From: Eubacteriales bacterium
Lineage (GTDB): Bacteria > Bacillota > Clostridia > Oscillospirales > QAKW01
DNA: 42,028 bases
Assembly: GCA_045545255.1 (NCBI GenBank)
Contig: JAZQAQ010000219.1
Location: 1-42,028, forward strand
Direction: 5' to 3'
Below the pieces are notes generated by a model. It was given only the letters and a program-made list of their open reading frames with translations, had not been told where the DNA came from and did no database searches. Positions 4,467-20,870 of this stretch are shown here, in pieces (the stretch's first letter is position 1; each line of letters begins with the position of its first letter). Made by a program: the position numbers and the translations under genes.

Positions 4467-4495
4467 TTGAAATTATATATATATTGTGCTATAAT
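4467..4495 (+). promoter_or_regulatory. Near-consensus sigma-A promoter of the 4.6-16.4 kb locus
   Basis: TTGAAA (4467-4472), exactly 17 nt spacer, TGcTATAAT (4487-4495). A leader of about 120 nt follows before the SD GGAGG (4611-4615). Confidence 0.65.
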
Positions 4496-4621
4496 CATCC
4501 CGATAGTATGGATAAAAGCGTACAAATCGTTTTTGTGTAATTTGTTCGATTTGATTTGTTCAAATGCACAAAGCCTTGTTCGCCGCTTGATATACTGATC
4601 AATTTAACTTGGAGGTAGTTT

Positions 4622-7600
4622 ATGAAAGACAAGAGTGCAAGTTCTGTCCTGCGGTCTTTTCTGGCGGTCGTTATGATCTTGATCATGGCGTTTTCTATGA
4701 CCACCTTCGTCTTTGCGGATGAAGTGGTTGAAAATGATGCGACTGCTGCCGGAGATACTGCTGCCGGGGCAGAGAAGGAAGAAACTTCGACAAATAATTC
4801 CTACGGTCCTGCCGATACGGTTATTCCTGAAGGCTCTAACAATGAGACTCAGGTTTCCGTGGTTGGCTTCTATCGTAGCGGAAGATATGTCGATTATTAC
4901 ACCGAGTATCAGCAATATGATGTTGCTCTGCCTGAGATCAAGGTCGATGCAACCCAGATCGTATCTGCAACCGCTCCCAACGAGATCAAGGCATCTTATG
5001 AGGGACGCAATCAGGTTGTTGTTACGAAGGGTGCCGGATCTTTGACCTATCAGATCAATGTGAGCAAAACCGGTATGTATGCTATCTGCCTGGAGTATTT
5101 CCCGCTGCTGGGCGATGGCAACGGTAAGGATTATGAAATTGCTGTAATGGTCGATGGCAAATATCCCCATAGCGACGCTAAGCGTTTTTCTCTGAAGCGT
5201 AACTGGGCAGATGAGGAAGATGAAAGTGCGTTCGACTCGGTCGGTAATGAACTCTACTCAAAGCAGGTTGAATCTGCCAAGTGGATGACGAAAGATATTC
5301 GTGACCCCGACGGTGTGTTCGACGATGCGGTTAAGTTCTATCTGACCGAAGGTGTGCACACCATTACCATCAGTGTAAACACCGGTGTTCTCGCTCTTGA
5401 CTCTATTCGTTTCTATAATGACGGCGAGGAGATGTCCTACGCAGATTACATTGCAATGAATGATTCCAAGGGCGCAGCCGATGCGATGGAAGAGTTTGTA
5501 CTTGAAGCAGAGACCTACATCGACAAGAGCGAGTCTTTGATTCAGCCTGCATACGACCGTAGTGACCCCAAGGTTACTCCGTACAGCATCAGCAAGACCC
5601 GTCTGAATGTTTTGGGCGGTGAGAACTGGAATACCAACGGTCAGACCGTTAACTGGCAGATCGAAGTTCCCGAAGACGGTTATTATACCATCGGTGTTCG
5701 CTATCGTCAGTCTTACGTTGAGGACTCCACCTCCTTCAGAAGAATCTATATCGACGGTGAGGTTCCCTTTGAAGAGGCGAATGCAGTAGGCTTCCCCTTC
5801 GGAAGTGGTTACAACTACAAAGTCCTCGGCGATGTGGATGAGAACGGCAAAGCCTATGACTTCAAGTTCTATTTGACCAAGGGCCAGCATGACCTTTCTA
5901 TGGAAGTTGTAATCGGTGATATGGCTCGTGTCAGCCGTGAAGCCGAAGATATCGTCTATCAGCTGAACTATATCTATCGTAAGATCATTATGGTTACCGG
6001 TACCACTCCGGATACTTATCGTGACTACGAGCTTGATAAGAAGATCGCCGGTTTGATGGATATGTTTAAGTCCGTCCACGAAGATATGCTTCTCGTTGAA
6101 GAGGAAGTTATCGCTATTAACGGTAACCTTGGCTCCGCTTCCATTATCAATACTTTGAAGCTGCAGCTTCAGGACTTCATCGCCAAGCCTTACGTAATTC
6201 CCGATCGTCTTTCTACCTTTAAAGATAATATAAGTACCCTCAGTTCCTGGATGCTGGCTCTGCGTAATCAGCCTGTTCAGTTTGATAAGCTGGTCTTTGC
6301 AGGCTCCGGCATCGTACCTACCCGTCAGGTTTCGAACTTCTTTGAGAATGTCAGCCACGAGGTTCGTGCATTTATCTCCTCTTTCGTGGATGACTATACC
6401 TCCGTCGGTGCAGAGAGCTCTACCGGCCGTGATCTGACGATCTGGGTTGGTACCGGTCGTGACCAAGCGACTGTATTGAAGACCTTGACCACCAACTACT
6501 TTACTCCGGAGACAGATATTTCTGTTAATGTTGGTCTGGTACCTCTGGGTATCTTGGAGAAGGCGATTGTTGCAGGCCGCGGTCCCGATATCGCTTTGCA
6601 TATCGGTCGTGCTACTCCTATGAACCTTGGCTTCCGTAATGCTGTTTATGATCTGACTCAGTTCAGCGATTTTGAAGAGGTCACCAAGCGTTTCTCTAAA
6701 TATGCATTGGTACCTTATACCTTAAGCACCAATGACGATGCAGGCAATCCGGTTAAGAAGGTTTTTGCTTTGCCCGAGACTCAGGACTTTAAATTGATGT
6801 TCTATCGTTCCGATATCTTTGCAGAGCTGGGTATCAGCGCTCCGAACACTTGGGATGAATTGGACGATGTCCTTCCTTATATTCAGGCAAACAATATGAC
6901 GGTCGGTCTGGATCCCAATGCCAGCGGTGAGACCTTCTATACCTTGATTCTGCAGAGCGGTCATACTCCTTACAGAGAAGACGGTACCGCTACCAATTTC
7001 ACCGAGCAGTATGCGATCGATGCATTCGAAAGATGGACTCGTTACTATCTGCAGTATGATCTGCCGACTGACTATAGCTGGTACAGCCGTTTCAGAAACG
7101 GTGAGATGCCTTTGGTAATTCAGGGTTATTCCAGCATTACTTATCTGCAGGAATCTGCTCCCGAGCTGAACGGTCTTTGGAAGGTTGCTCCCGTTCCCGG
7201 TATTCTGGATAAGGAGACCGGTGTCATCAACCGCACTGACCAATCCAGCGGTATGAGCGGATGTATGATCATTGAGCGTACCATTAAAAAGGCAAAGAAT
7301 CCCGAGCAGAAGCTTCAGGACGCTTGGACCTTTATGAAGTGGTGGACCTCCGCAGACATCGCAGCAGATTACGGTAACCGTGTTGAGATGGCGATCGGTT
7401 CTGTGGCAAGATATTCTACCGCAAACCTTCAGGCCTTCGAAAAGATTAAGTGGTCCAGTGATGAGGCTGCTGTTATCAAGGCTCAGCGTGAGTGGACCCG
7501 CGAGACTCCCGAGTTGGTCGGTGGCTACTATGTAAGCCGTAATATCATCAACGCATTCCGTAATGTTGTAAACAACAGTGCGAATCCGCGTGAAAAACTT

Positions 7601-7687
7601 TTCTATTATAATAATGAGATAAACGATGAGATTTGGCGTAAGCGTTCCGAATATCATCTGTCTGTCCCGGAGGAGGCGAGAAAATAA
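4622..7687 (+). CDS. Giant extracellular solute-binding protein (1021 aa): signal peptide, two tandem beta-sandwich (CBM-like) repeats, helical linker, C-terminal ABC family-1 SBP domain
   Basis: SD GGAGG lies 6 nt upstream. The N-terminal signal peptide ends ...FVFA/DE and has no Cys. The internal repeat pairs LTYQINVSKTGMYAICLEY...VKFYLTEGVHTITISV with VNWQIEVPEDGYYTIGVRY...FKFYLTKGQHDLSMEV. The C-terminal ~420 aa (DLTIWVGTGRDQATVLKTL...) resemble LplA/YtcQ-type sugar SBPs. Confidence 0.85.
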   Translation: MKDKSASSVLRSFLAVVMILIMAFSMTTFVFADEVVENDATAAGDTAAGAEKEETSTNNSYGPADTVIPEGSNNETQVSVVGFYRSGRYVDYYTEYQQYDVALPEIKVDATQIVSATAPNEIKASYEGRNQVVVTKGAGSLTYQINVSKTGMYAICLEYFPLLGDGNGKDYEIAVMVDGKYPHSDAKRFSLKRNWADEEDESAFDSVGNELYSKQVESAKWMTKDIRDPDGVFDDAVKFYLTEGVHTITISVNTGVLALDSIRFYNDGEEMSYADYIAMNDSKGAADAMEEFVLEAETYIDKSESLIQPAYDRSDPKVTPYSISKTRLNVLGGENWNTNGQTVNWQIEVPEDGYYTIGVRYRQSYVEDSTSFRRIYIDGEVPFEEANAVGFPFGSGYNYKVLGDVDENGKAYDFKFYLTKGQHDLSMEVVIGDMARVSREAEDIVYQLNYIYRKIIMVTGTTPDTYRDYELDKKIAGLMDMFKSVHEDMLLVEEEVIAINGNLGSASIINTLKLQLQDFIAKPYVIPDRLSTFKDNISTLSSWMLALRNQPVQFDKLVFAGSGIVPTRQVSNFFENVSHEVRAFISSFVDDYTSVGAESSTGRDLTIWVGTGRDQATVLKTLTTNYFTPETDISVNVGLVPLGILEKAIVAGRGPDIALHIGRATPMNLGFRNAVYDLTQFSDFEEVTKRFSKYALVPYTLSTNDDAGNPVKKVFALPETQDFKLMFYRSDIFAELGISAPNTWDELDDVLPYIQANNMTVGLDPNASGETFYTLILQSGHTPYREDGTATNFTEQYAIDAFERWTRYYLQYDLPTDYSWYSRFRNGEMPLVIQGYSSITYLQESAPELNGLWKVAPVPGILDKETGVINRTDQSSGMSGCMIIERTIKKAKNPEQKLQDAWTFMKWWTSADIAADYGNRVEMAIGSVARYSTANLQAFEKIKWSSDEAAVIKAQREWTRETPELVGGYYVSRNIINAFRNVVNNSANPREKLFYYNNEINDEIWRKRSEYHLSVPEEARK

Positions 7688-8649
7688 TGGCTTCTGTATC
7701 CAAGCAACGTGAAATTGAATTATTAAAGAAGAAAAAGCTTTCCTTCTCCGAGCGCGCAGCTCTTACTTGGCGGTCGATGAAGGAGAATAAAATCAACTAT
7801 CTGTTGATTATGCCTTTTATGGTCTTCTTCACTTTGTTTACGATCATCCCCATTGCTGCGTCTATGGTTTTGTCTTTCACTCGCTACGACATTCTGAATA
7901 CTCCCATCTTTATCGGTTGGAATAACTATTTGAGAATGTTCTTGGAAGACAGCGTATTTTTGATCGCATTGAAGAATACCTTGAAGTTTGCAATTATTAC
8001 CGGACCGGTCAGCTACTTGCTGTGCTTTATCTTTGCATGGTTTATCAATGACCTTTCTCCGGTAGCCAGAGCGTTCTTTACCGTAGTCTTCTATGCGCCG
8101 ACGCTGGCAAATGTATACTTCATCTTCCAGTACCTCTTCAGCAGTGATATGTACGGTCTTATCAATTCTATTATGATGAATTTGGGTATGATTGATGAAC
8201 CTATCGCTTGGTTGAAGAATACGAAGTATATGCTGAATATCGTTATTATTGTTCAGCTGTGGTGCTCGCTGGGTACCAGCTTCCTGTCCTTTATCGCAGG
8301 TCTGCAGAACTTGGATCCCTCTCTTGCAGAGGCGGGTGCTATCGACGGTGTTCGTAACCGTTTCCAGGAACTCTTCTATATTACCCTTCCTCAGATGGGT
8401 GGTATGCTGATGTTCGGTGCGGTTATGCAGATTTCCTCTTCCTTCGCAGTAGGTGGTATTTCCTCCTCGTTGCTGGGTAACCCGTCTGTTGACTACGCCG
8501 GTCATACTTTGGTTCTGCATATTTCCGACTTTGGTCATACTCGGTTTGAGTTGGGTTATGCATCTGCAATCGCAGTTGTACTGTTTGCAATGATGATTTT
8601 GAGTAAGGCTTTGATCAATAAGCTGCTTGCTCGATTCTCGCACGATTAA
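7687..8649 (+). CDS. Carbohydrate ABC transporter permease (LplB/MalF-like)
   Basis: 320 aa, 6 TM, with a typical CUT1 permease N-terminus (INYLLIMPFMVFFTLFTIIP) and an EAA-loop (LAEAGAIDGVRNRFQELFYITLP). The start overlaps the upstream stop as TAATG. Confidence 0.9.
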   Translation: MASVSKQREIELLKKKKLSFSERAALTWRSMKENKINYLLIMPFMVFFTLFTIIPIAASMVLSFTRYDILNTPIFIGWNNYLRMFLEDSVFLIALKNTLKFAIITGPVSYLLCFIFAWFINDLSPVARAFFTVVFYAPTLANVYFIFQYLFSSDMYGLINSIMMNLGMIDEPIAWLKNTKYMLNIVIIVQLWCSLGTSFLSFIAGLQNLDPSLAEAGAIDGVRNRFQELFYITLPQMGGMLMFGAVMQISSSFAVGGISSSLLGNPSVDYAGHTLVLHISDFGHTRFELGYASAIAVVLFAMMILSKALINKLLARFSHD

Positions 8650-8669
8650 GAAAGGAGAGTGAACAAGAA

Positions 8670-9527
8670 ATGTCTACTAAGTTAAGAAGAACGAAAGTTT
8701 CCGTTGTCGGCGACATTACTACTTATCTTTTGCTCGCTCTCTACGCTGCATTTATGTCGTTGCCGCTGGTTTATGCGATTGTTCAGTCCATTAAGCCGTA
8801 CAACGAGCTGTTCATCTTCCCGCCCCGTTTCTTCACCAGAAACCCGACCTTGATGAGCTTTAGAAAGCTTTTTGACTTGACCTCTACCTCTTGGGTACCT
8901 TTCTCCAGATACGTATTTAATACTCTTGCTAATACGATCATTGGTACGGTCATTCATATTCTTTCCGCAGCGATGTGTGCATATCCTTTGGCAAAGAATA
9001 AGTTCCCCGGTAAAAAGACCCTCTTCACTTTGGTTGTGTGGTCTCTGCTGTTTACCGGTGGTGTTACCGAGATTCCTGTTTATCTGGTAATGTCCTATTT
9101 GGGAATCGTTGATACTTACTTTGCATATTGGTTGCCTGAAATTTCTGCAACGATGGGTGTATTCCTTTTGAAGCAGAATATGGCAGAAATCCCCAATGCA
9201 ATGATCGAAGCTGCCCGTATCGACGGCGCAGGGGACTGGAAGATCCTCTGGTCCATTGTAATGCCTTCCATCAAGCCCGCGTGGTTGACTCTCGCAATCT
9301 TCTCCTTCCAGCGTAACTGGAACGCAACCGCAGGTTCTTACATCTATACTGAAACTCTCAAGACCCTGCCTACCGCGTTGAGCCAGATTACCGCTGCAGG
9401 AAGCGTTGCCCGTGCAGGTGAGGCTTATGCTGCGTCCGTTCTGATGATGATACCGCCGATCATCTTCTTTATCTTTGCTCAGAGTAGTACGGTAAAGACG
9501 ATGGCCCACGCCGGTATCAAGGGTTAA
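8670..9527 (+). CDS. Carbohydrate ABC transporter permease (LplC/MalG-like)
   Basis: 285 aa, 6 TM, EAA-loop MIEAARIDGAGDWKILWSIVMP. SD GGAGAG lies upstream. Confidence 0.9.
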   Translation: MSTKLRRTKVSVVGDITTYLLLALYAAFMSLPLVYAIVQSIKPYNELFIFPPRFFTRNPTLMSFRKLFDLTSTSWVPFSRYVFNTLANTIIGTVIHILSAAMCAYPLAKNKFPGKKTLFTLVVWSLLFTGGVTEIPVYLVMSYLGIVDTYFAYWLPEISATMGVFLLKQNMAEIPNAMIEAARIDGAGDWKILWSIVMPSIKPAWLTLAIFSFQRNWNATAGSYIYTETLKTLPTALSQITAAGSVARAGEAYAASVLMMIPPIIFFIFAQSSTVKTMAHAGIKG

Positions 9528-9540
9528 GGAGGTGCTCGAC

Positions 9541-11100
9541 ATGAAAATGAGATTTATGAAAGTCGGCGCTATTGTGATGATTATGGTTGTCTTGGCTTCC
9601 ATGCTTGCAATGCCCTCCTCTGCGTATATCGCTTATAATACCTACAATTTTAATTATTATGGTGAAGCGGTTGAAACACCTTCCGGCTATACTCCCGAGA
9701 AGGTTTACTACGGTGACGATTTAGGGGTCGGAGCTATTACTAACGCTGTTGACCTTTATGTCAGCCCCCAGAATGAGATCTATATTCTGGATTATTTCGG
9801 AAGTGAAAACACCGCGCGTTTGCATATTTTCGATTCCAATTTTAAGCATATTAAAACGATTTCTACTCTTACTGCAAACGGCAAGCCTTACTTAATGAAG
9901 TTGCCCGAGAGTCTCGTGGTCGATAAATATGGTTATATTTATATCTGCGATACCGGTAACCGCCAGATTTTAAAACTGGATAAAGATAAGAGCGGTAAGA
10001 TCGTGCAGACTGTCGGCGCACCCAATTCTGATCTGTTCAGCGGTGATTTCAAGCCCTCCAAGATTGCAATTGCAAAGAATATGTCCCTTTACGTAATCTG
10101 TACCGGTGCTTTGGACGGTATTATGGAGTTTGACTCCAAGGGTACCTTCCTCCGTTACTTCGGTGCTCCTGATGTGCAGATGTCCGTAACCGATATGGTT
10201 ATTTTGGCTTGGCGTCGTATTTACCGTTCCATCCTCGGAAGCGATGCGGATATGGCGTTCGCCACCTTTGTACCTACCGAGTTTGAAAACTTGGTCGTTG
10301 ATGATTTCGGTTTTGTTTATTCTGTAATTGCTGCAGCCGAGGATAAGAATACCGGGCAGCTGATGAAGATGAACTTCCTTGGCAACAATATCCTGGATCC
10401 TCTTGCCAAGAGTACCAAGAAGGTCAACGATACTCTTTCTGAAACCTATGGCGACCTTCTCCGTCGCGGTACAAAGTCTGAGGGTAATATCTTTACTGAT
10501 GTTGCGGTTGACCAAGATGGTTTTATTACTATGCTGGACTCTAACCTTTGCAAGATCTTTGAGTACGATACCGAAGGTAATCTTACCTTTATCTATGGCG
10601 GTGCCGGTAAGCAGCAGGGTTTCCTTTCTCAGCCTGTTGGTATGGCAAAGCTTGGTAAAAAGACCTTGATTCTGGATGCCAACTTTGGCTCTTTGACCGT
10701 CTATGATCTGACCAAGCACGGCCGCACTCTTCATGATGGCATCTTGCTTTATGATCAGGGACTTTATACCGATGCTGAAAAGTATTGGGATGAAATCCTC
10801 AAGCAGAATGCAAACTGTGAGCTTGCTCATATCGGTCTCGGTAAGGTTTATTATCAGTTCGGTCGCTACGCTGAAGCGTTGCATCACTTCAAGATTGCAA
10901 ACGACCGTATGAACTATCAGGATGCTTATGCACTGTATAGAGAATCCCTCATCGCCGATTATTTTGACTTGATTATGACCGCACTGGTTGTTCTGGTTAT
11001 TTTGGCGTTTGTATGGCGTTTCTTTGGAAAGAGAATTATTGAAATGATTAAAAATAGAAAGCAGGGAGGTGGAGACGATGATGCAGAATTTATGGAGTAA
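9541..11100 (+). CDS. Exported six-bladed NHL-like beta-propeller + TPR protein with a C-terminal TM anchor
   Basis: The start was moved to ATG 9541, 9 nt after AAGGAGG. The signal peptide ends ...PSSA/Y. About six repeats of the type LVVDKYGYIYICDTGNRQILKLD or VAVDQDGFITMLDSNLCKIFEYD are visible. A TPR-like segment (AEKYWDEILKQNANCELAHIGLGKVYYQFGRYAEALHHF) is followed by the TM helix MTALVVLVILAFVWRFF and an acidic tail. Confidence 0.7.
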   Translation: MKMRFMKVGAIVMIMVVLASMLAMPSSAYIAYNTYNFNYYGEAVETPSGYTPEKVYYGDDLGVGAITNAVDLYVSPQNEIYILDYFGSENTARLHIFDSNFKHIKTISTLTANGKPYLMKLPESLVVDKYGYIYICDTGNRQILKLDKDKSGKIVQTVGAPNSDLFSGDFKPSKIAIAKNMSLYVICTGALDGIMEFDSKGTFLRYFGAPDVQMSVTDMVILAWRRIYRSILGSDADMAFATFVPTEFENLVVDDFGFVYSVIAAAEDKNTGQLMKMNFLGNNILDPLAKSTKKVNDTLSETYGDLLRRGTKSEGNIFTDVAVDQDGFITMLDSNLCKIFEYDTEGNLTFIYGGAGKQQGFLSQPVGMAKLGKKTLILDANFGSLTVYDLTKHGRTLHDGILLYDQGLYTDAEKYWDEILKQNANCELAHIGLGKVYYQFGRYAEALHHFKIANDRMNYQDAYALYRESLIADYFDLIMTALVVLVILAFVWRFFGKRIIEMIKNRKQGGGDDDAEFME

Positions 11101-11758
11101 GATTTATCTTTTTATTCAAACATTCAGTGAACGGATGCTTGCAGGTAAAAAGAATCCTTTCCTGATGCTGAACCATCCGGTTGAGACGATGGAAGATCTG
11201 AAGTTTAAGAAGAATGGCTCTACTATTTATGCCACATTGCTCCTTCTTGCTTATTCTGTATCTGCAATTATTCAAGAGGTTGCAACCGGATTTATCTATA
11301 GTACCTTGCGCATCAAGGATTTCAACATCCTGACCGTGTTATGTACTTCCGGTTTGATGGTCTTGCTGTTCGTTGTGGCAAACTGGGCACTGTGCACCTT
11401 GCTTAACGGTGAGGGCCGTCTGGTAGATATCTACATTATGACCTGCTACAATCTGACTCCGCTGATCTTCTACAACCTGTTCAGTACCGCATTATCCAGA
11501 GTTTTGATCTCCAGTGAATTTGCCTTTGTATCTATCGTCGGTGTATGCTGCACGATTTGGTTCGTGGCTTTGATGTTCTACGGAGCGATGACGATCCATA
11601 ACTATTCATTCTGGGGAACTTTACTGAATTTGATTGCCTCCCTTGTGGCAATGGCCGTCATTTTCTTCCTCATTTTCTTGTTTGTTGTGTTGATTCAGCA
11701 GTTGTATGTGTTCGTTTTGACGATCTATACGGAATGCCGTATGAGAATTCTATCTTAG
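11078..11758 (+). CDS. Yip1-family polytopic membrane protein
   Basis: ATG 11078 lies 8 nt after GGGAGG and overlaps the upstream gene by 23 nt. About 5 TM helices follow a ~45-aa cytoplasmic head (NHPVETMEDLKF...), the pattern of bacterial Yip1-domain proteins. Confidence 0.65.
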   Translation: MMQNLWSKIYLFIQTFSERMLAGKKNPFLMLNHPVETMEDLKFKKNGSTIYATLLLLAYSVSAIIQEVATGFIYSTLRIKDFNILTVLCTSGLMVLLFVVANWALCTLLNGEGRLVDIYIMTCYNLTPLIFYNLFSTALSRVLISSEFAFVSIVGVCCTIWFVALMFYGAMTIHNYSFWGTLLNLIASLVAMAVIFFLIFLFVVLIQQLYVFVLTIYTECRMRILS

Positions 11759-11776
11759 GAAAGGGGAGAGGTTACA

Positions 11777-14002
11777 ATGAAAAAGACAATTTCTATCTTG
11801 TTATCGTTGGTGCTGCTCCTTTCCTGCATCTCTACGATTACATTTACTTCATCTGCTGCACCGGCGAAATTAGATGTTCCCGGCAATTATCAGCTGGTGA
11901 ACGAAAATAAGAATCTGGCACTGTATATTGATAGTACTGCAGGTACTTTCGGTGTAATGAACCAGAAAACCGGTACCGTCTGGTATTCCAACCCCTTGAA
12001 TTGGCAGGATGATAAGATCGCCCAAGGCGAAAGCTATGACGAGCTTACCAGTAAGATCGCGGTTACCTATCTGACTGAGACCTATAAATCTTATACGGTC
12101 ACCTCTAACGTTGCCTCGACCATCACCGAGCGTCAGGGCAAGGATTGGATTATGACCTTCTATTTCAAGGGCGAGAATCGCGATTTCACCATTCCTGTCA
12201 GACTTTCTCTGAAAGAAGAGTATCTTCATATTGAGTTGATGATTGATCGTATCAGAGAGTTTGGTGATACGCGTGTTCTTTCCGTTAAGATGTTCCAGTT
12301 CTTTGGCGCAGCCGGCTTGAATGATAAGGGCTATGGTCTGATTCCCGATGGCACCGGCTCCTTGATGGAGTTTAACCGCGGTGTTCTGAACTCTTATGAG
12401 TTTGGTCTTGAGGGGGAGGGTCAGTTCTATGCTCCGAACCCCACTGAGGTTGCTACCTCTAACTATTTCACCAACTGGAATGAGCCTCTTCGTCTGCCTG
12501 TATACGGTATGGTGAAGAATGGCGAGGCATATCTCAGCGTGATCGAGAGCGGTGAATCAGTTTCTGACTTGCACGCATATATCAGTAAATATAAGAACAG
12601 CTACAATACGATGTTCCCCGTTGTTCACGTTCGTGATACTCAGAGCCGTCGTAGCTCTACCGGTAAGGCAGGTAGTGGTTCTTACTATACCGATTCTTTG
12701 CCGGAGAACTACATTGCAAGATATTATCTCTTGGATGGCGAAAAAGCGAACTACATCGGTATGGCTGAAAAGTACAGAGATATTTTGATCAAAGAGAACG
12801 GTATGAAGGAAGTAAAGGATACCATTTCCAACACTCTCGCCGTTACTCTTTACGGTGCTGTAAAGAAATCTAAGCATTTCCTTGGAATTCCTTATACCGG
12901 TCAGGATCCTTTGACTTCCTATAAAGAGGCGGAAGAACTGATCGATCGTATGAACACCGATAAGATCGAAAAAGCGTATATCAACTATCTTGGTTGGGCA
13001 GCCGGCGGTCTTGAGACCACGATGACCACCGATGTTAATCCGAACTCCAAACTTGGCGGTAAAAAAGCTCTCAAGAGTTTGATTGCTAAGGCAAACGGCA
13101 TTGAAGATTATCATCTTTCCTTTGATCTTGATCTTCAGGCATTCTATAGCGGAAATTCCGATGTCAAAAAGTTTGAGAATACTGCTTATGGTTTGGATTC
13201 TTCTCCTGTAGCGATTTATAAGGCAAGAATTTATGCGGCAGGCGCAAGATCTACCGGTAACATTCTGAATCAGCTGATCCATCCCAATCATATGCTCGGC
13301 TATGCGAAGTCCTTTGTGAAGAATGCATCTGCTTGGGGAATTAAGAACTTCTCCTTTAATTCCATCGGTGATACCGTTTATTGTGCATACAACCTGAAGG
13401 ACGTAAGTACCCGCGATATGACCACTGCAACGATGGTTGAAATCTTCAAGAACGCTTCTGAAGCAGTCGGCGAGAACGGTATTGTAAATACCCTTGGCGG
13501 TAACGGTTATGCAATCTCCTATGTTGACAATATTTTGGAGGCACCCGTTTATGGTAGCCACAATAATATTGCTCTGCAGGAAGTTCCTTTCTATCAGATT
13601 GTTTTCCGTGGCTATGTCAATCTGGCAAGCACTCCGGTCAATCTGAATTCTGAGCAGGATGACTTGATCCTGAAACTGGCTGAAACCGGTATGAGTTTGT
13701 ATTATCTCTTGATGGATGCAGAATCTACCTCCTTCCAGGATACCAAGTTTACTGCTTCTTATGCTTGTGAGCTGGATGATCATTATGATGAAATGATCGC
13801 AAATTATAAGCGTATGAAGGTGGTTTATGATGCGGTCGGTTCCAGCAAGATCACCAATTATGAGATCGTCTCTGAAGATGTGAAGATCACTACCTTCAGC
13901 AACGGCGCAAAGGTCTATGTGAACTACGACACTGAGGAAGTTACCGTTAACGGTGTTAAGATCGGCGCTAAAGACTTTAAAGTGGTAGGGGGTGCTAACT
14001 AA
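11777..14002 (+). CDS. Exported 741-aa protein, DUF5696-like (function unknown); possible lipoprotein
   Basis: SD GGGGAGAGG lies upstream. The N-terminus MKKTISILLSLVLLLSC... has a lipobox-like LLSC, and an alternative SPase I site SSA/AP is also present. No catalytic motif was recognised. The DUF5696 family assignment is from memory of similar loci and is unverified. Confidence 0.6.
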   Translation: MKKTISILLSLVLLLSCISTITFTSSAAPAKLDVPGNYQLVNENKNLALYIDSTAGTFGVMNQKTGTVWYSNPLNWQDDKIAQGESYDELTSKIAVTYLTETYKSYTVTSNVASTITERQGKDWIMTFYFKGENRDFTIPVRLSLKEEYLHIELMIDRIREFGDTRVLSVKMFQFFGAAGLNDKGYGLIPDGTGSLMEFNRGVLNSYEFGLEGEGQFYAPNPTEVATSNYFTNWNEPLRLPVYGMVKNGEAYLSVIESGESVSDLHAYISKYKNSYNTMFPVVHVRDTQSRRSSTGKAGSGSYYTDSLPENYIARYYLLDGEKANYIGMAEKYRDILIKENGMKEVKDTISNTLAVTLYGAVKKSKHFLGIPYTGQDPLTSYKEAEELIDRMNTDKIEKAYINYLGWAAGGLETTMTTDVNPNSKLGGKKALKSLIAKANGIEDYHLSFDLDLQAFYSGNSDVKKFENTAYGLDSSPVAIYKARIYAAGARSTGNILNQLIHPNHMLGYAKSFVKNASAWGIKNFSFNSIGDTVYCAYNLKDVSTRDMTTATMVEIFKNASEAVGENGIVNTLGGNGYAISYVDNILEAPVYGSHNNIALQEVPFYQIVFRGYVNLASTPVNLNSEQDDLILKLAETGMSLYYLLMDAESTSFQDTKFTASYACELDDHYDEMIANYKRMKVVYDAVGSSKITNYEIVSEDVKITTFSNGAKVYVNYDTEEVTVNGVKIGAKDFKVVGGAN

Positions 14003-15426
14003 TGAGCAATCAAAACGAAGAATTGAAAAATGAAGCTTTGGAAGCTCAGGTTGAAGCAAACGATGTCCCCGAGACGGTTGAGGCTGAAGCTCCGGTAGAG
14101 CGTGACAACAAGGAAATTGCTGCTACTCTCACCAAGCAGAATCCCAAACGTGCCCAGGAAATTGCCAAGGAACGTCTTGCGAAGATGTCTCCCGAGCAAA
14201 TTGCGGCACTGCGCGCAGCAAAGGCAGCAAAGATCGAGGCTGAAAAAGCCGCAAAACTTGCGGCCGAAGAGGAAGCTGAGAAAAAGCGTCTCGAGGAGAT
14301 TGAGAAGAAGCAGCTCTCCGACGAGCAAAAAGCAATGATCGTTGATCAGCTTTCTCAGCTGACTCCCGAGCAGTTAGAGGCGGTAAAGCAAAATCGTGCC
14401 GCCAAAAAAGAAAGAGATCAGCGTCTGGCTGAGATCGAAGCTAAAAAAGAGGTTAAGGCAAGCTTAGCAGCTGATACGGCTGCTCCGAAAGCGGAGAAGA
14501 AGGAAGCTAAGAAAGCTAAAAAAGCCACCAAAAAGAATAGACGCGGTATTTCTTATGAATCCAAGCAAGCGTTTACAGGCTTTATGTTTGTACTGCCTTG
14601 GTTTATCGGATTTCTGCTGTTCTTTGCGGCACCCTGCTTCCAGTCCTTGAAATTTGCTTTTTCCAAGGTTGCTGTATTTGAAAATTATAAGTGCACCTGG
14701 TATGGTATCGGTAACTTTAAGGATATTTTGACCAGTGGTGCAACTTATCTGCAGGCATTGCTCGATACTCTGACAGATCTGGCAGTCAATGTGCCGGTTA
14801 TCCTGATCTTCAGCTTGTTCGTCGCTGTTCTGCTGAACCGCAAGTTTGCAGGTCGCGGTCTTGTGCGTGCGATCTTCTTCCTGCCGGTTATCGTTACCAC
14901 CGGTGTCGTTATGAGTACCTTTAACTCCTCCGGCGATGCCAGTGATGTTATGGAAGGCGATGTCGGTAACGGCGTTCTGTTCCAGGTAACCAATGCATCC
15001 AGCTTTTTGGCTGAACTTGGTCTGAATGAAAATTTGACCAATTATATGTCTATGGTCGCTGATCGAATCTTCGACGTAGTATGGGATTCCGGTATCCAGA
15101 TCCTTCTCTTCCTTGCTGCGTTGCAGGGTATTTCTCCCTCGCTGTATGAGGCGAGTGATGTTGAAGGTGCAACCGCTTGGGAAACCTTCTGGTTGATTAC
15201 TTTCCCGAATGTGGCGCCTATCATCTTGGTTAACATCGTTTATACCATCGTTGATACCTTCAGCGATACGGATAACGAGGTCTTGATCGAGATCGATAAG
15301 TATCTTACCAGTACCTTTAACTTTGGTGCTGCATCGGCTGCATCTTGGACATTCTTTATCGTTATTTTGTTGCTTATCGGTATTATTTTCGGTCTGTTTA
15401 AACTGATCGGAAAAGGAAATGATTGA
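14002..15426 (+). CDS. Carbohydrate ABC transporter permease (MalF-like) with a ~180-aa Lys/Glu/Ala-rich N-terminal extension
   Basis: The ATG overlaps the upstream stop (TAATG), and the SD GGGGG (13988-13992) lies 9 nt upstream. Residues 1-182 are low-complexity and charged. From FTGFMFVLPWFIGFLLFF onward it is a typical 6-TM CUT1 permease with the EAA-loop YEASDVEGATAWETFWLITFP. Confidence 0.85.
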   Translation: MSNQNEELKNEALEAQVEANDVPETVEAEAPVERDNKEIAATLTKQNPKRAQEIAKERLAKMSPEQIAALRAAKAAKIEAEKAAKLAAEEEAEKKRLEEIEKKQLSDEQKAMIVDQLSQLTPEQLEAVKQNRAAKKERDQRLAEIEAKKEVKASLAADTAAPKAEKKEAKKAKKATKKNRRGISYESKQAFTGFMFVLPWFIGFLLFFAAPCFQSLKFAFSKVAVFENYKCTWYGIGNFKDILTSGATYLQALLDTLTDLAVNVPVILIFSLFVAVLLNRKFAGRGLVRAIFFLPVIVTTGVVMSTFNSSGDASDVMEGDVGNGVLFQVTNASSFLAELGLNENLTNYMSMVADRIFDVVWDSGIQILLFLAALQGISPSLYEASDVEGATAWETFWLITFPNVAPIILVNIVYTIVDTFSDTDNEVLIEIDKYLTSTFNFGAASAASWTFFIVILLLIGIIFGLFKLIGKGND

Positions 15427-15443
15427 GAAAGGGGGTAAAAAAT

Positions 15444-16448
15444 ATGCGTATTATTAAAGCGTTCAAACATCAGTTTGGTGAAAACAGCAAGAAAGCTGAT
15501 AAGAGAATGTGGGGCTATTTATTGTCCAAGTTTGTGGCAAATACAGCCATTGCATTGATTTTGATCGGTCTTTCGTACATTATTTTGTACCCCTTGATCT
15601 TCAGTATTTCTCAGGCGATCCGTACGCAGGCGGATATGTATGATACGACTATCATCTATATCCCGAAGCATTTTACTCTTGAGAACTTTTTCGCTGCTTG
15701 GGAGGTCCTTGATTTCCCCACAGCGCTGAAGAATACTTTCAACATTTCTATCTGGCCCACACTTTTGCAGGTCTGTACCTGTGCGTTGACCGGCTATGGT
15801 TTTGCTCGGTTTAAATTCCGCGGGAAGAACATCTTGTTCTTGCTGGTGTTGCTGACGATCATCGTACCGCCCTCCACCATTATGATCCCGCTGTATACCA
15901 GCTTCCGTATGTTTGACCCTCTCTACATTGCAACTGCAATGCACGCATTTGGTTGGATCAGCGAGCCTTATCTGACTCTGACTGACTCCCTCTGGAGTTT
16001 CATCCTGCCCGCACTGTTTGCGGCCGGTTTGAAGAGCGGCTTGTTTGTATTCGTTTACCGTCAGTTCTTTAGCGGTTTCCCCAAGGAGTTGGAAGAGGCT
16101 GCTTATATCGACGGTTGTGGCGCAATGAAGACCTTCCTTCGAATCTTGGTTCCCAATGCGGCACCTGCATTTGTAACGGTATTCCTGTTCTGTATCGTTT
16201 GGTACTGGAATGACTATTATACTGTTCCGATGTTCCTGCCGAATATGGATACCCTGCCGAATGCTTTGGGTAACATGCATAGCAATATGACCGGTGACTA
16301 CGGCGGGTATAAGGGTGCTGACGCTATTTCCCTTTATCCGATCCTCCGTGCTGGTATTATTCTGTATATTTCTCCGCTGTTGATTACCTTTATCATCCTG
16401 CAGAAGAAGTTTACGGAGTCTATCGCTCGAAGCGGTATTGTTGGTTAA
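15444..16448 (+). CDS. Carbohydrate ABC transporter permease (MalG-like)
   Basis: The start was moved to ATG 15444, after the SD AAGGGGG. 334 aa, 6 TM, EAA-loop LEEAAYIDGCGAMKTFLRILVP. Confidence 0.85.
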   Translation: MRIIKAFKHQFGENSKKADKRMWGYLLSKFVANTAIALILIGLSYIILYPLIFSISQAIRTQADMYDTTIIYIPKHFTLENFFAAWEVLDFPTALKNTFNISIWPTLLQVCTCALTGYGFARFKFRGKNILFLLVLLTIIVPPSTIMIPLYTSFRMFDPLYIATAMHAFGWISEPYLTLTDSLWSFILPALFAAGLKSGLFVFVYRQFFSGFPKELEEAAYIDGCGAMKTFLRILVPNAAPAFVTVFLFCIVWYWNDYYTVPMFLPNMDTLPNALGNMHSNMTGDYGGYKGADAISLYPILRAGIILYISPLLITFIILQKKFTESIARSGIVG

Positions 16449-16451
16449 TAG

Positions 16452-16486
16452 AAAAAAGAGAGAGACAACGTCTCTCTCTTTTTTTG
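16452..16486 (+). terminator. Intrinsic terminator ending the 12 kb locus
   Basis: Perfect 10-bp stem AGAGAGAGAC (16457-16466), loop AAC, GTCTCTCTCT (16470-16479), then T7. Confidence 0.85.
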
Positions 16487-16517
16487 TTGAAGGGAATGTG
16501 CTGCGAGATGGATAATA

Positions 16518-16546
16518 TTGACTTTATATCGGATTTGTGATATAAT
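16518..16546 (+). promoter_or_regulatory. Near-consensus sigma-A promoter of the MarR operon
   Basis: TTGACT (16518-16523), 17 nt spacer, TGaTATAAT (16538-16546). Confidence 0.65.
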
Positions 16547-16550
16547 TCTT

Positions 16551-16570
16551 CTTGTTGAGTATTCAACAAG
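16551..16570 (+). promoter_or_regulatory. Perfect 8-4-8 palindrome, candidate MarR operator
   Basis: CTTGTTGA GTAT TCAACAAG starts 5 nt downstream of the -10 hexamer and therefore overlaps the expected transcription start. Confidence 0.5.
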
Positions 16571-16587
16571 TTTTGACGGAGGTGTTT

Positions 16588-17040
16588 ATGAAGGAGCGAT
16601 TTGAGACTTTTACGGTTCTCATTAACCGTATCAATCGTAATATTCGTAAAATCAAAAATCAGGAAATGGCAGAATATAATTTGAGAAGTGCCCATATTTC
16701 TTGTCTTTATTATTTATACTCTGCCGATGGAATGACCGCAACCGATCTTTGCGAGCGATGCGAAGAGGATAAGGCTACAATATCTCGCGCTTTGGATTTT
16801 CTTGAAGAAAATGGATATTTAACTTGTGAATCCCAAAGTGCCAAGCGGTATAAAAGTCCACTCTTGCTTACCGAAAAAGGTTATATGGTCAGCGCAAAGA
16901 TAGCCGAAAAGATCAGAGGTGTTCTTGATAAGATCGGCGTCGGTCTGACTGAGGAGGAAAGGGTGGCGTTTTATCGCAGTCTTTCCATTATAAGCAGCAG
17001 TCTTGAGCAATGTGTGAATAGTAATAAGAAAACAGTATAA
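16588..17040 (+). CDS. MarR-family transcriptional regulator
   Basis: The start was moved to ATG 16588, after the SD GGAGGTG. 150 aa with a winged-HTH pattern (MTATDLCERCEEDKATISRALDFLEENGYL...KRYKSPLLLTEKG). Confidence 0.85.
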   Translation: MKERFETFTVLINRINRNIRKIKNQEMAEYNLRSAHISCLYYLYSADGMTATDLCERCEEDKATISRALDFLEENGYLTCESQSAKRYKSPLLLTEKGYMVSAKIAEKIRGVLDKIGVGLTEEERVAFYRSLSIISSSLEQCVNSNKKTV

Positions 17041-17060
17041 AACGGAAAGGAATAGTTTTT

Positions 17061-19130
17061 ATGAGCAGAATGAATGAAAAGTATGATGCGCTGTTTACGC
17101 CGTGGAAGATTGGCAATGTTGAGATTAAAAATCGAATCGTAATGTGCCCTATGGGCGGAACCTCACTCTTTGGCTGGTTTGAATTAACAGGATGTCATTT
17201 TGATAAGGAAGCGGCAAAGCTTTTCCTTGAACGAGCTAATAATAATGTTGGTCTTATCATTCCCGGGATTGCACCGTTGAGGGATACCTTTTGGGGTAAA
17301 TGGCTTTGGCAGAATCCGAAGATGTTTGAGGAACTTAAAGTCTTTATGGATGAGATTCATAAGACCGGTGCAAAGCTCTTTATTCAGCTGACTGCGGGGA
17401 TGGGACGCTCTTGGGCGATCACCGAACTTGTGGCACCCTTACATAAAAATAAATTTACCCGCGCCATTGTAAAACCCATTATCGATACTTCTCACGAGTT
17501 GGCATCTCCGTCTCCGCAGCCTTCTCGCTGGGCGCACGACATTGAATGCCCTGAAATGACGGTGGAGCAGATTCACGAAATCATCGAGGCCTTCGCCAAG
17601 ACGGCAAAGCTTTGCAAGGACGCCGGGGTTGACGGCGTGGAAGTTCACGCAGTTCACGAAGGGTATTTATTGGACCAATTTTCTATCGAGTTTTTCAATA
17701 AGCGTACAGATGAGTATGGCGGTAGTTTTGAAAACCGCTATCGTTTTGCGGCAGAGGTTGTAAAAGCAATTAAAGAAACTTGCGGAGAGGATTATCCCGT
17801 ATCTCTCCGTTATTCGGTGGAGTCTAAAATGAAAGGCTTTTGCGAAGGTGCTATGCCCGGCGAGGAATATGTCGAAGTCGGTCGTAATATGGAGGAATCC
17901 GAGCGGGCGGCAAAGTATCTGCAGGATGCGGGCTACGATATGCTCAATGCGGATAACGGCACCTATGATTCTTGGTATTGGGCACATCCGCCTATGTATA
18001 TGCCTGAAAACTGTAATCTTGAGGATGTGGCGCATATTAAGGAGTTTGTGGACATCCCCGTCGTTTGTGCAGGCAGAATGGATGCCGAGGTTGGTGCCAA
18101 GGCTGTGGCTGAAGGAAAAATAGATGCTGTTGGTGTGGCACGCCAATTCCTTGTTGATCCGGAATGGATCACAAAACTGATCGAGGATCGGCTTGATGAT
18201 ATTAAACCTTGCATTTGCTGCCATAGCGGATGCTTTAATTTCTCCTCTTCCAAGGGTCACGCCAATACGCAGGATCTTACCGATACGATGGGTCTTGCTC
18301 GCTGTGCATTAAATCCAGAAACGATGCAATCCAAGAAATACTATATTGAACCTGCAAAAAAGCAAAAGACCATTGCCGTTATCGGTGGCGGTATTGGCGG
18401 AATGGAGTCTGCGCTTGTTTGTGCAAAGCGTGGTCATAAAGTTACTCTTTATGAAAAGTCTGATAAGCTCGGCGGTGTATTTATTGCGGCGGCTGCACCT
18501 TCTTTTAAGGAAAAGGACAAAGCACTCATTGCTTGGTACATTCGTGAACTCTCTAAATATCCTATTGATATTAAATTAAATACGGAAATCAAGGATGTCA
18601 AAGCAATTGATGCGGATGAGATTATCGTGGCGACCGGCGCTGTGGCCAAAAAGATTCCCGTAAAGGGCGCGGAAACTGCAGTAGAAGCAGTGGACTATCT
18701 GCTTGGGAATAAAACCGTCGGTGATAATGTTGTCGTGATCGGCGGCGGATTGACAGGTTGCGAAATCGCATACGATCTGTATCTGCAGGGGAAGAAGCCT
18801 GTAATAGTGGAAATGCAGGACGACTTGATTACGACGAAAGGCATTTGCCTTGCCAATACCAGCTTCTTACGCGATTTCTTTAAGACCAATAAAGTGCCGG
18901 TATATCTTGAAACATCGCTTTGCGAAATTGGCGAAAACAGTGTTTCTCTCAAGAACAAGGAAGGCGAAATCTTTAATGTGGATATGGATTCCGTCATCCT
19001 TTCGGTTGGATATAATCCTGCGCCCATCGTTTCAAAGGGTAAGCATATCCATATTATCGGTGATGCTGAAAAGGTTGGCAATCTCCGTAGTGTTATTTGG
19101 GGCGCGTGGAACACTTGTATGAAATTATAA
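17061..19130 (+). CDS. 2-enoate reductase / 2,4-dienoyl-CoA-reductase-like flavoprotein (OYE FMN barrel + Fe-S Cys cluster + FAD/NAD(P)H domains)
   Basis: 689 aa. The N-terminus is OYE-type (FTPWKIGNVEIKNRIVMCPMG, VEVHAVHEGYLLDQF). A Cys cluster CICCHSGC...RC follows, then Rossmann motifs VIGGGIGGME and VIGGGLTGCE. Confidence 0.85.
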   Translation: MSRMNEKYDALFTPWKIGNVEIKNRIVMCPMGGTSLFGWFELTGCHFDKEAAKLFLERANNNVGLIIPGIAPLRDTFWGKWLWQNPKMFEELKVFMDEIHKTGAKLFIQLTAGMGRSWAITELVAPLHKNKFTRAIVKPIIDTSHELASPSPQPSRWAHDIECPEMTVEQIHEIIEAFAKTAKLCKDAGVDGVEVHAVHEGYLLDQFSIEFFNKRTDEYGGSFENRYRFAAEVVKAIKETCGEDYPVSLRYSVESKMKGFCEGAMPGEEYVEVGRNMEESERAAKYLQDAGYDMLNADNGTYDSWYWAHPPMYMPENCNLEDVAHIKEFVDIPVVCAGRMDAEVGAKAVAEGKIDAVGVARQFLVDPEWITKLIEDRLDDIKPCICCHSGCFNFSSSKGHANTQDLTDTMGLARCALNPETMQSKKYYIEPAKKQKTIAVIGGGIGGMESALVCAKRGHKVTLYEKSDKLGGVFIAAAAPSFKEKDKALIAWYIRELSKYPIDIKLNTEIKDVKAIDADEIIVATGAVAKKIPVKGAETAVEAVDYLLGNKTVGDNVVVIGGGLTGCEIAYDLYLQGKKPVIVEMQDDLITTKGICLANTSFLRDFFKTNKVPVYLETSLCEIGENSVSLKNKEGEIFNVDMDSVILSVGYNPAPIVSKGKHIHIIGDAEKVGNLRSVIWGAWNTCMKL

Positions 19131-19152
19131 TTGACGGATAAGGAGAGGTAGA

Positions 19153-20430: not shown

Positions 20431-20870
20431 AACAGTTTAAAGGAAGAGTTATTACCCCCGGTGAGGTGGTCGCTGAAGCGGTAGTGACAACGGAGGGCTT
20501 TAATACACTTGCTTCACTTCAAATGGCACTGCAATTTGGCGATAAGGAAGTAAAATGCGGGGACCAGAGCAATAAAGAACTTTACGGTAAGCCTTTGCTT
20601 GGTAAGGCACTTTGTCTGCCGCAGACCATTGGTTCCACTACCGGCGGACTCGTACTCTATTGCGCTTGCTCTATGGGGAAAAATCCCGCGTGTATGTTGT
20701 TTGCCAACCACATTGATTCTCTCGCTGCGGCAGGTGCTGTTCTTGCGGATGTATGGGTTGACGGCGTAACGATGCCGGTTATTGATTCCTTGGGTGATGA
20801 ATTCTTAAACTATGTAAAAGACGGGATGAAGATTACTGTAAAAGCAGATGGTATCATCGAGGTTGAATAA
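20427..20870 (+). CDS. Aconitase X swivel-domain small subunit (DUF126)
   Basis: 147 aa. An ATGA overlap links it to the large subunit. MKQFKGRVITPGEVVAEAVVTTEGFN... is the typical DUF126 opening. Confidence 0.8.
   Translation: MKQFKGRVITPGEVVAEAVVTTEGFNTLASLQMALQFGDKEVKCGDQSNKELYGKPLLGKALCLPQTIGSTTGGLVLYCACSMGKNPACMLFANHIDSLAAAGAVLADVWVDGVTMPVIDSLGDEFLNYVKDGMKITVKADGIIEVE

Follow-up and report, generated by a model that had tools for sequence, protein, structure and literature searches.

The subject of this analysis is an eight-gene cassette for two pairs of ABC permeases of the CUT1 type, a very large solute-binding protein (SBP) and three further envelope proteins. It lies in a stretch of 42,028 nucleotides (positions 1 to 42,028 of contig JAZQAQ010000219.1, assembly GCA_045545255.1, from an Eubacteriales bacterium), hereafter called the window. 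Calling of open reading frames (ORFs) in the window recovered all eight genes, which follow one another on the + strand from 4622 to 16448 (Table 1). The gene lengths and junctions agree with those of a first-pass annotation of this DNA if the ATG codons at 9541 and 11078 are taken as the starts of genes 4 and 5, respectively. The junctions then range from an overlap of 23 nt (-23 nt, genes 4/5) to a gap of 20 nt (+20 nt, genes 2/3), as had been annotated, and stop and start codons overlap or are common at the junctions of genes 1/2, 6/7 and 7/8.

Table 1. Coordinates of the cassette genes, of their putative transcription signals and of other features of the window
Feature	Position	Strand	Length	Description
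Promoter	4467-4495	+		sigma-70 type; TTGAAA, 17-nt spacer, TATAAT, extended -10 TG; 11/12 match
Gene 1	4622-7687	+	1021 aa	giant exported SBP
Gene 2	7687-8649	+	320 aa	permease F1, UgpA/MalF-type
Gene 3	8670-9527	+	285 aa	permease G1, UgpE/MalG-type
Gene 4	9532-11100	+	522 aa from GTG; 519 aa from ATG at 9541	NHL/TPR protein
Gene 5	11069-11758	+	229 aa; or 226 aa from ATG at 11078	Yip1 protein
Gene 6	11777-14002	+	741 aa	DUF5696 protein
Gene 7	14002-15426	+	474 aa	permease F2, UgpA/MalF-type; ATG overlaps gene 6 stop
Gene 8	15423-16448	+	341 aa	permease G2, UgpE/MalG-type
Intrinsic terminator	16446-16489	+		A run, perfect 10-bp GA/TC stem (16457-16479), T run
MarR / oxidoreductase / aconitase-X unit	16518-20870	+	689 aa (oxidoreductase); 425 + 147 aa (aconitase X)	MarR; old yellow enzyme (OYE)-type NADH:flavin + FAD/pyridine-nucleotide oxidoreductase; split aconitase X (AcnX)
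ABC ATPase	29890-30999	+	369 aa	stand-alone, MsmX/MalK-type; Pfam ABC_tran, OB_MalK, TOBE_2; 13 kb from operon

Both ends of this run of genes carry the signals that the first-pass annotation had placed there. Only three promoter sites of this kind, the present one included, occur in the first 20 kb. It is located in a 300-nt intergenic region, downstream of the terminator hairpin of a nicotinate phosphoribosyltransferase (NAPRTase) gene; a leader of about 125 nt (4496-4621) separates it from gene 1. The terminator stem at the other end is strong (free energy, dG, -19.7 kcal/mol; z = -5.2 against shuffled sequences). From this anatomy, i.e. a single promoter, a single terminator and genes that overlap or nearly touch, the eight genes are predicted to form one transcript. 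A Pfam scan of 4467-16486 found no nucleotide-binding domain (NBD), no glycoside hydrolase (GH) family and no regulator. No Rfam family was detected anywhere in the window, the leader included. Cre-like sites are absent from the promoter and the leader, and the 21 sites in the whole window are not enriched beyond chance (13 +/- 4 expected). One near-palindromic cre-like sequence, with one mismatch to WTGNAANCGNTNNCW on both strands, is found about 340 nt inside gene 1 (4965-4980), in a window in which such matches are not clearly above chance.

The four permeases were assigned by Pfam, NCBIfam and their EAA coupling loops. NCBIfam models of the UgpA, UgpE, MalG and GlcT/U kind match across all four, and PF00528 (BPD_transp_1) is matched in genes 3, 7 and 8 (E 1e-8 for gene 3 and 7e-16 for gene 8), while for gene 2 it is the orthologues that carry this domain. 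Gene 2 (F1) matches UgpA with E 1e-16 and has an intact EAA loop (EAGAIDG...ITLP); gene 3 (G1) matches GlcU and UgpE (E 1e-21) and has the loop EAARIDGAG...IVMP; gene 7 (F2) matches UgpA (E 2e-12; YEASDVEGA...ITFP); and the loop of gene 8 (G2) reads EEAAYIDGCG...ILVP. In other words, the operon encodes two heterodimers of the MalF/UgpA plus MalG/UgpE kind, together with one SBP of the MalE/oligosaccharide class. F1 and F2 are 21% identical and G1 and G2 25% identical, hence the pairs are distinct translocons and ancient paralogues rather than the product of a recent duplication. The N-terminus of F2 (14002-14560) is a Lys/Ala/Glu-rich low-complexity extension of about 185 aa before the first membrane helix and is probably cytoplasmic; this extension is specific to the subclade of the window. 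The nearest relatives have it as well, and more distant cassettes have a shorter version or none.

The conservation of the cassette was investigated in 70 loci that were collected by scanning one genome per species (GTDB) for relatives of the DUF5696 protein. The eight window proteins were compared with these loci by tblastn, and synteny was judged only where the contig was long enough. In every locus that could be judged in this way (60+ loci), all eight genes are present in identical order and on the same strand, and this synteny persists where the DUF5696 proteins are only 22-25% and the giant SBPs only 27-38% identical. The cassette was seen in uncultured Eubacteriales and Clostridia of animal guts, Acutalibacteraceae, Oscillospiraceae, Ruminococcaceae, Defluviitaleaceae, four Paenibacillus species, Natronincola, Ca. 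Darwinibacter and two termite-gut Treponema. A second entry, via distant relatives of the giant SBP (~36% identity), led to the same cassette in Butyrivibrio fibrisolvens CP146963.1, Ca. Epulonipiscioides gigas and two long metagenome contigs. Every DUF5696 gene with a readable neighbourhood lies inside a cassette, i.e. there are 0 loci in the sample with DUF5696 outside it. The family itself is large: a profile search of the full library gave 7205 clusters at 50% identity with E <= 1e-3, and 4108 with E <= 1e-30.

The flanks behave differently from the core. The flanking genes that are kept are housekeeping genes (NAPRTase, P-type ATPase, phenylalanyl-tRNA synthetase), they are kept only within clades, and the neighbourhood comparison found no flanking gene that accompanies the cassette across clades. 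Since the flanks differ between clades while the core is constant, the cassette is a conserved unit. This bears on the simplest explanation of the locus, namely that two sugar importers of an ordinary kind, each independent of the other, stand beside three genes for unrelated envelope proteins without a functional link. Each permease pair does look like a complete F/G pair, in other lineages each has its own SBP, and the low identity between the pairs is what independent importers would show. However, an eight-gene order that is invariant from Bacillota to Spirochaetota while the flanks change, genes that overlap (median gap across loci -35 nt between genes 4 and 5, -4 nt between genes 6 and 7) and a DUF5696 family that was seen nowhere else in the sample all speak against such independence, and we disfavour this explanation as very improbable. 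The neighbourhood analysis had been proposed with the first-pass annotation as a check on whether the adjacency of these genes might be accidental, and the answer is that it is not.

The two Treponema loci (L044 and L057, metagenome-assembled genomes from termite gut) contain the complete cassette with an adjoining second SBP, in Spirochaetota. This suggests a horizontal transfer from Bacillota into a diderm, in which the system would occupy the periplasm and the inner membrane.

Such a second binding protein gene is a recurrent element. In 16 of about 28 distant loci, among them those of Butyrivibrio, Epulonipiscioides, Paenibacillus and Treponema, an ordinary SBP gene of 420-530 aa (SBP2) directly adjoins the cassette, usually after G2, so the common layout is [giant SBP-F1-G1]-[NHL/TPR-Yip1-DUF5696]-[F2-G2-(SBP2)]. 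The SBP2 proteins are mutually only 20-35% identical, and the core proteins of the cassette are far more conserved. In the clade of the window, no SBP2 gene was found among about 30 loci with enough flanking sequence. The earlier description of the locus as four CUT1 permeases with one binding domain is therefore accurate for the operon in the window, but as a general feature it does not hold, since it is specific to this clade.

The giant SBP itself is a modular protein. Its Pfam match to SBP_bac_8 covers residues 648-918 (E 1e-13), and its best sequence match in the PDB is Lin1841, an SBP for sophoro-oligosaccharides (E 4e-14). According to the AlphaFold2 model (predicted local distance difference test, pLDDT, 84), the protein starts with a hydrophobic helix, either a signal or an anchor, and a linker (27-88) that is disordered and acidic, continues with two beta-sandwich modules similar to carbohydrate-binding module family 35 (CBM35; ~100-266 and 290-430) and a long helical bundle (432-548), and ends with a MalE-type oligosaccharide-binding domain (~600-1021). 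In Foldseek the C-terminal domain is similar to oligosaccharide SBPs with TM values up to 0.8, and the ligands of these relatives include sophoro-, cyclo-isomalto- and manno-oligosaccharides, maltodextrin, cellodextrin and lacto-N-tetraose. A search with the N-terminal 512 aa found no sequence relative in the PDB for this part (~500 aa) of the protein, and NCBIfam has no named family for genes 1, 5 and 6. The CBM35 match of the window protein is below the Pfam threshold (22 bits vs the 28-bit cut-off), whereas CBM_35 is matched in 20 of 30 homologues (best E 1e-7). The term "CBM-fused", under which this protein was first annotated, is thus reasonable at the level of the family, but the window protein itself does not reach the cut-off.

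The absence of an ATPase gene had been taken as a mark of an unusual system, and this does not stand up. Within 4467-16486 there is indeed no nucleotide-binding subunit, but the same window encodes one outside the operon, with the TOBE/OB domain of the MalK/MsmX type (Table 1). Its PDB relatives are 7x0q (E 1e-175), which is probably a C. thermocellum ATPase, B. subtilis MsmX (6yir, E 1e-137) and then MalK, SugC and AlgS. The gene is apparently monocistronic and is located between the genes of a pseudouridine synthase and a PucR-type regulator. An ATPase of this kind within 10 kb of the cassette was seen in only 1 of 75 loci. Firmicute CUT1 importers are commonly without an ATPase gene of their own and share MsmX or MsmK. 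Because of this sharing habit, the stand-alone MsmX type in the window and the rarity of a nearby ATPase gene in the other loci, an operon without an ATPase is quite ordinary.

Between the two permease pairs lie the genes for the accessory proteins. Gene 4 matches NHL and TPR_16 in Pfam and encodes an exported propeller, a pair of TPRs and a C-terminal membrane helix (~480-498). With the single sequence the NHL assignment reaches 22.9 bits against a cut-off of 20 bits, with no single matched stretch that passes alone. The NHL propeller is found at the profile level: a profile built from 21 orthologues retrieves NHL propellers that have 3-6 repeats each (E 1e-20 to 1e-57). Besides designed proteins, these include the natural proteins TRIM71, Brat and the extracellular sensor domain of the kinase PknD, which is the closest natural bacterial relative of the gene 4 propeller. 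The matched propellers are of the ligand- or partner-binding type and are not hydrolases. Gene 5 is a Yip1 protein (PF04893; E 3e-12, 47 bits against a cut-off of 28.6 bits, profile positions 3-172 of 173), and a simple hydropathy scan gives four strong hydrophobic segments, i.e. it is a polytopic member of this family.

Genes 4 and 5 are conspicuously linked: in 61 of 64 loci they either overlap or form a fusion, and in 16 of the 64 they are a single in-frame ORF of 694-822 aa, in which the C-terminal membrane helix of the NHL/TPR part continues straight into the membrane domain of Yip1. By this Rosetta-stone evidence the NHL/TPR and Yip1 proteins are one membrane unit, and for these two proteins the idea that the accessory proteins belong together has held. 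The fusions point to a physical complex in which the extracellular propeller and the TPRs would be mounted on a Yip1 membrane base.

The third accessory protein, encoded by gene 6, matches Pfam DUF5696 (PF18952) over its full length (E 1e-143; 480 bits against a cut-off of 25.6 bits; profile positions 15-612 of 612). Its AlphaFold2 model (pLDDT 90; predicted TM score, pTM, 0.90) consists of an N-terminal beta-sandwich, a (beta/alpha)8 barrel and a C-terminal beta-sandwich. The top Foldseek matches are DagB/ZgGH129 (5opq/8rzk; E 1e-33, TM 0.63-0.70) and NagBb (5wzn; E 1e-29), followed by enzymes of GH101, GH31 and GH36. The homology can also be detected by sequence: the profile of the DUF5696 family finds DagB (E 2e-13) and NagBb (E 2e-5) in the PDB, only with the N-terminal domain and the first barrel strands, and a profile-profile comparison with hhalign aligns DUF5696 with DagB significantly along the full length, over 615 columns (99%, E 9e-18). 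Relatives of DagB pass the threshold for the N-terminal half of Pfam DUF5696 and, with their C-terminal part, that for PF11308 (GH129). In gene 6, PF11308 has no match even at E <= 1; the profile of the C-terminal half of the barrel gives only chance matches and no glycosidase among PDB sequences, and the single gene 6 sequence finds nothing meaningful in the PDB. Judged by fold and by profile, then, the gene 6 product is a remote homologue of the characterised glycosidase DagB, with an identity of ~13-19%. The first-pass statement that the locus contains no enzyme is correct insofar as there is no Pfam GH family, but it was overstated in view of this glycosidase fold and remote homology.

The catalytic residues tell a different story from the fold. 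In DagB, Asp486, Glu517, Glu531 and Asp202 are each required for activity according to mutagenesis; only Asp486 is common to DagB and NagBb, and the acid/base residue differs between the two enzymes (PMC5698469). In the hhalign alignment, which is uncertain by a few residues around beta4, these four residues correspond to D532, L573, L587/E588 and E214/G215 of the window protein. Acids occupy columns 532, 573 and 588 in 40, 66 and 60 of 151 family representatives, respectively, and in 62 cassette orthologues acids at 532 and 573 never occur together. The catalytic set of DagB (D486/E517/E531/D202) or that of NagBb (D435/E478) is thus not conserved. The DUF5696 family has a conservation pattern of its own. 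It keeps two glycines, G192 and G194, of an N-domain PDGxG loop, whose D191 is present in 143 of 151 representatives, and further conserved residues are Y326, T380, N576, Y578, P604, F605 and N622; D450 is found in 113 and E636 in 147 of the 151, the latter being probably structural from its place at the end of helix alpha7. The best-conserved Asp of the barrel is Asp537 in the beta4-alpha4 loop (122 of 151). As the alignment is ambiguous there and Asp537 is five residues from the nucleophile column assigned by hhalign, it could be the true equivalent of DagB Asp486.

These data allow one to weigh a scheme of capture, hydrolysis and import, in which the DUF5696 protein is an active exo-alpha-glycosidase with relocated catalytic residues that trims a glycan while the giant SBP holds it, and the products then enter the cell through the two translocons. 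The fold and the profile homology to retaining alpha-glycosidases (the GH129-like DagB, NagBb, GH101, GH31 and GH36) would suit it, the differing acid/base residues of NagBb and DagB (PMC5698469) provide a precedent for relocation, the family keeps the acids D191, D537 and D450, and the window protein keeps D532, aligned to DagB D486, and E588, beside the column aligned to E531. Nevertheless, acids are a minority at the columns of DagB D486, E517 and E531, the pair 532/573 is never acidic in the cassette orthologues, position 537 is Ala and position 573 Leu, Ser or Thr in the window clade, and the C-terminal half of the barrel is neither recognised as a glycosidase by sequence nor matched by PF11308. 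We consider this scheme possible but rather unlikely. For the window clade, a non-catalytic binding role or a changed mechanism appears more likely than a DagB-like hydrolase, and the "processing" step proposed for this locus at first is not supported, since the catalytic residues of DagB are not conserved in DUF5696.

DUF5696 proteins are always extracytoplasmic; some clades have a classical lipobox, others an uncleaved anchor or a signal peptide. The sequence LLSC(17) of the window protein fits the lipobox pattern and would make a lipid anchor possible, but an AXA site follows it. Two further observations were set aside. An apparent fusion of DUF5696 with permease F2 proved to be an artefact of ORF extension, and no locus has one. 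The loss of Asp537 is associated with the loss of SBP2, and this association was not counted as evidence as it represents only one or two phylogenetic events. A group of Acutalibacteraceae loci (L045, L048, L061, L062, L066 and L069) is peculiar in several respects: the NHL/TPR and Yip1 proteins form a fusion, column 537 of DUF5696 is Ser, with an Asp two residues on, the otherwise near-invariant Asn576 is replaced by Ala, and an ORF of 814-899 aa lies upstream of the cassette, with no Pfam match for the one that was scanned (L045).

The genomic context in other carriers points to glycans. In Butyrivibrio fibrisolvens the cassette comes directly after the genes of an AraC regulator, a GH43 and a GH115; immediate neighbours in other genomes include two GH13 genes, GH43, GH8 and GH36 genes and a histidine kinase, as well as GH10, GH3, GH2 and GH38. 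No single enzyme family recurs, hence the cassette looks like a generic uptake platform that is attached to varied, substrate-specific genes. The proposed link with glycans is in this way supported by three lines of evidence, namely the domain similar to oligosaccharide SBPs, the recurrent CBM35-like modules and the GH and AraC or histidine-kinase neighbours in other genomes.

The same context can be used to judge whether the cassette might have an envelope or signalling role instead of a nutritional one, i.e. recycling or remodelling of wall or capsule glycans, or gating of transport on an external cue by Yip1 and an NHL propeller that resembles the PknD sensor. In the window genome and its clade only housekeeping genes (NAPRTase, P-type ATPase) flank the cassette, and hydrolases and sugar regulators are missing there; among natural bacterial proteins, the sensor domain of a kinase comes closest to the propeller; and the core proteins are far more conserved than the adjoining SBP2 genes. 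These facts would be expected of such a role. On the other hand, the neighbours in other lineages are plant-glycan hydrolases and varied sugar regulators, no kinase, transcription factor or wall-synthesis gene accompanies the cassette, and the permeases are of the importer type with EAA loops. A role of this kind therefore strikes us as improbable.

On balance, we favour a composite reading by a small margin over doubt: the locus would be one operon for an oligosaccharide importer of modular build, with two CUT1-type ABC translocons and an accessory module outside the cytoplasm. In the first unit, the giant SBP would work with F1/G1; its two CBM35-like modules would hold a polymer or a large oligosaccharide, and its MalE-type domain would pass the ligand to the permeases. 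The anciently diverged F2/G2 would be the second translocon, served by SBP2 in most other lineages. The NHL/TPR-Yip1 proteins and the membrane-tethered, GH129-like DUF5696 protein may act at the cell surface as a scaffold and as a module that binds or trims glycans and so feeds the translocons, and the stand-alone MsmX-type ATPase may power both of them in trans. The gene content, the domain folds, the synteny, the NHL/TPR-Yip1 fusion, the presence of the ATPase gene and the glycan-related neighbours in other genomes are observations; co-transcription, physical assembly, the pairing with the ATPase, the substrate class and the role of each accessory protein are what we infer within this reading.

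Several points weigh against this composite reading. The ATPase at 29890-30999 is likely to energise both permease pairs in trans, a pairing that is suggested by the habit of the family. Contact of the translocons with each other or with the accessory proteins is likewise a prediction. In the window clade, where SBP2 is absent, the partner of F2/G2 must be one of three candidates, i.e. the giant SBP, an SBP encoded elsewhere or the DUF5696 protein. The four essential residues of DagB are not conserved in the DUF5696 family, so catalysis by the gene 6 product is at most a possibility, and at the column of Asp537, the best-conserved barrel Asp, the window protein and its 31 orthologues in the clade all carry Ala as part of an invariant Y-C-A-Y-N motif. 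The cassette in the window has housekeeping genes beside it and neither a hydrolase nor a sugar regulator, and its nutritional role in this genome would be extrapolated from other genomes. Finally, a literature search found no paper on DUF5696, PF18952, the cassette as a gene combination or the combination of Yip1, NHL and ABC transporter; similarly, nothing relevant was found for "YIP1 family protein" or "NHL repeat" with polysaccharide utilisation.

A bolder and, in our opinion, unlikely extension of the composite reading is that the cassette represents an unrecognised but widespread class of glycan-uptake machine of Gram-positive bacteria. The NHL/TPR-Yip1 unit would organise the two ABC translocons, and the DUF5696 protein would act without hydrolysis as a surface glycan receptor which, in clades without SBP2 and with Ala537, would perhaps feed F2/G2. 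If this were true, a pseudo-glycosidase would be the substrate-delivery protein of an ABC importer. The textbook scheme of a CUT1 importer comprises an SBP, two transmembrane domains (TMDs) and two NBDs. If the accessory proteins do assist the ABC import of complex glycans, new parts would be added to the SBP + 2 TMD + 2 NBD scheme, and functions would be given to a large DUF family, to bacterial Yip1 proteins and to an extracellular NHL/TPR protein. In that case the cassette could also serve as a marker of Firmicute glycan uptake; compared with the Sus systems of Bacteroidetes, the utilisation loci of Firmicutes are much less understood. The carriers include fibre-degrading bacteria of gut, rumen, termite gut and soil (Butyrivibrio, Paenibacillus, Oscillospiraceae, Treponema), and as cultured carriers exist, the question is directly testable.

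The cassette of this genome has housekeeping genes around it. It is flanked by H+-pyrophosphatase and NAPRTase genes on one side and by the MarR-oxidoreductase-AcnX unit on the other. The genes of this unit (16552-20870) have a near-consensus promoter of their own (16518-16546), and the unit is absent from 19 related loci, in which a P-type ATPase directly follows the cassette; it looks like an insertion in this genome and does not belong to the system. The MarR gene (16552-17040) was considered as a regulator of the cassette and rejected, since it is the first gene of another unit with a separate promoter and is missing from those 19 loci. The membrane H+-pyrophosphatase gene (566-2668, - strand) lies towards the opposite end of the window. 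Farther downstream we note a 685-aa ORF with no Pfam family at E <= 1e-3 (24243-26300, +), between the genes of a SpoU-type rRNA methyltransferase and an EF-G-like GTPase; a division and wall-hydrolase cluster (32345-36306, +) of an FtsE-like ATPase, an FtsX with an extracellular domain, a PcsB-like coiled-coil M23 peptidase and an S41 (CtpA-like) PDZ protease; the genes of enolase and a lactate/malate dehydrogenase (36345-38701, -); and the gene of stage III sporulation protein AE (40628-41722, +), which points to an endospore-forming lineage of Clostridia.

When the cassette is compared with known systems, no characterised utilisation system matches the locus as a whole; such a match, together with membership of the 741-aa or 519-aa protein in a characterised CAZy family, had been named beforehand as a result that would speak against a novel system. 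What is known is the CUT1 transport core; what is undescribed is the combination of two translocons, a giant CBM-SBP, an NHL/TPR-Yip1 unit and a GH129-derived protein in one conserved cassette. The nearest relatives of the core are the Firmicute CUT1 importers (TC 3.A.1.1) with a common ATPase, e.g. the MsmX-dependent systems of B. subtilis and the cellodextrin transporters of C. thermocellum. The cassette is like them in its MalF/UgpA and MalG/UgpE permeases with EAA loops, in its MalE-type oligosaccharide-binding domain and in having the ATPase outside the operon, as a MalK/MsmX type with a TOBE/OB domain that is encoded alone. It differs from them in that the window operon holds two diverged permease pairs, that two CBM35-like modules and a helical bundle precede the SBP domain in a protein of 1021 aa, that three conserved accessory genes (NHL/TPR, Yip1 and DUF5696) stand between the pairs, and that in this genome neither a catabolic enzyme nor a regulator adjoins.

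Two parts of the accessory module have more distant counterparts. DagB/ZgGH129 (ZGAL_3152), an exo-alpha-1,3-(3,6-anhydro)-D-galactosidase of Zobellia galactanivorans, and NagBb (GH129) have the same three-domain architecture as gene 6. Gene 6 differs from DagB in its low identity (~13-19%), in the required residues, which are not conserved, and in the C-terminal half of the barrel, which is unrecognisable by sequence; moreover, DagB belongs to a carrageenan polysaccharide utilisation locus (PUL) of a Bacteroidete, whereas gene 6 is part of a Firmicute ABC cassette. The Yip1 protein can be compared with B. subtilis YknW, a membrane protein of the Yip1 family that goes with the ABC exporter YknXYZ. 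In both cases a bacterial, polytopic Yip1-family protein is encoded with an ABC transporter that it presumably assists; but the partner in the window is an importer-type system with no membrane fusion protein or exporter components, and the Yip1 proteins of the cassette are coupled or fused to an extracellular NHL/TPR domain. Lastly, the Gram-positive PULs (gpPULs) of Lachnospiraceae unite transporter, carbohydrate-active enzyme (CAZyme) and regulator in one locus. The cassette resembles them where it adjoins AraC/GH43/GH115 genes in Butyrivibrio fibrisolvens and GH10, GH8, GH36 or GH13 genes elsewhere, so that a co-located degradative CAZyme and regulator are found in other carriers, whereas the window has neither a regulator nor a recognised active CAZyme beside the transporter. 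The conserved unit is here the transporter with its accessory cassette, and not a substrate-specific set of enzymes.

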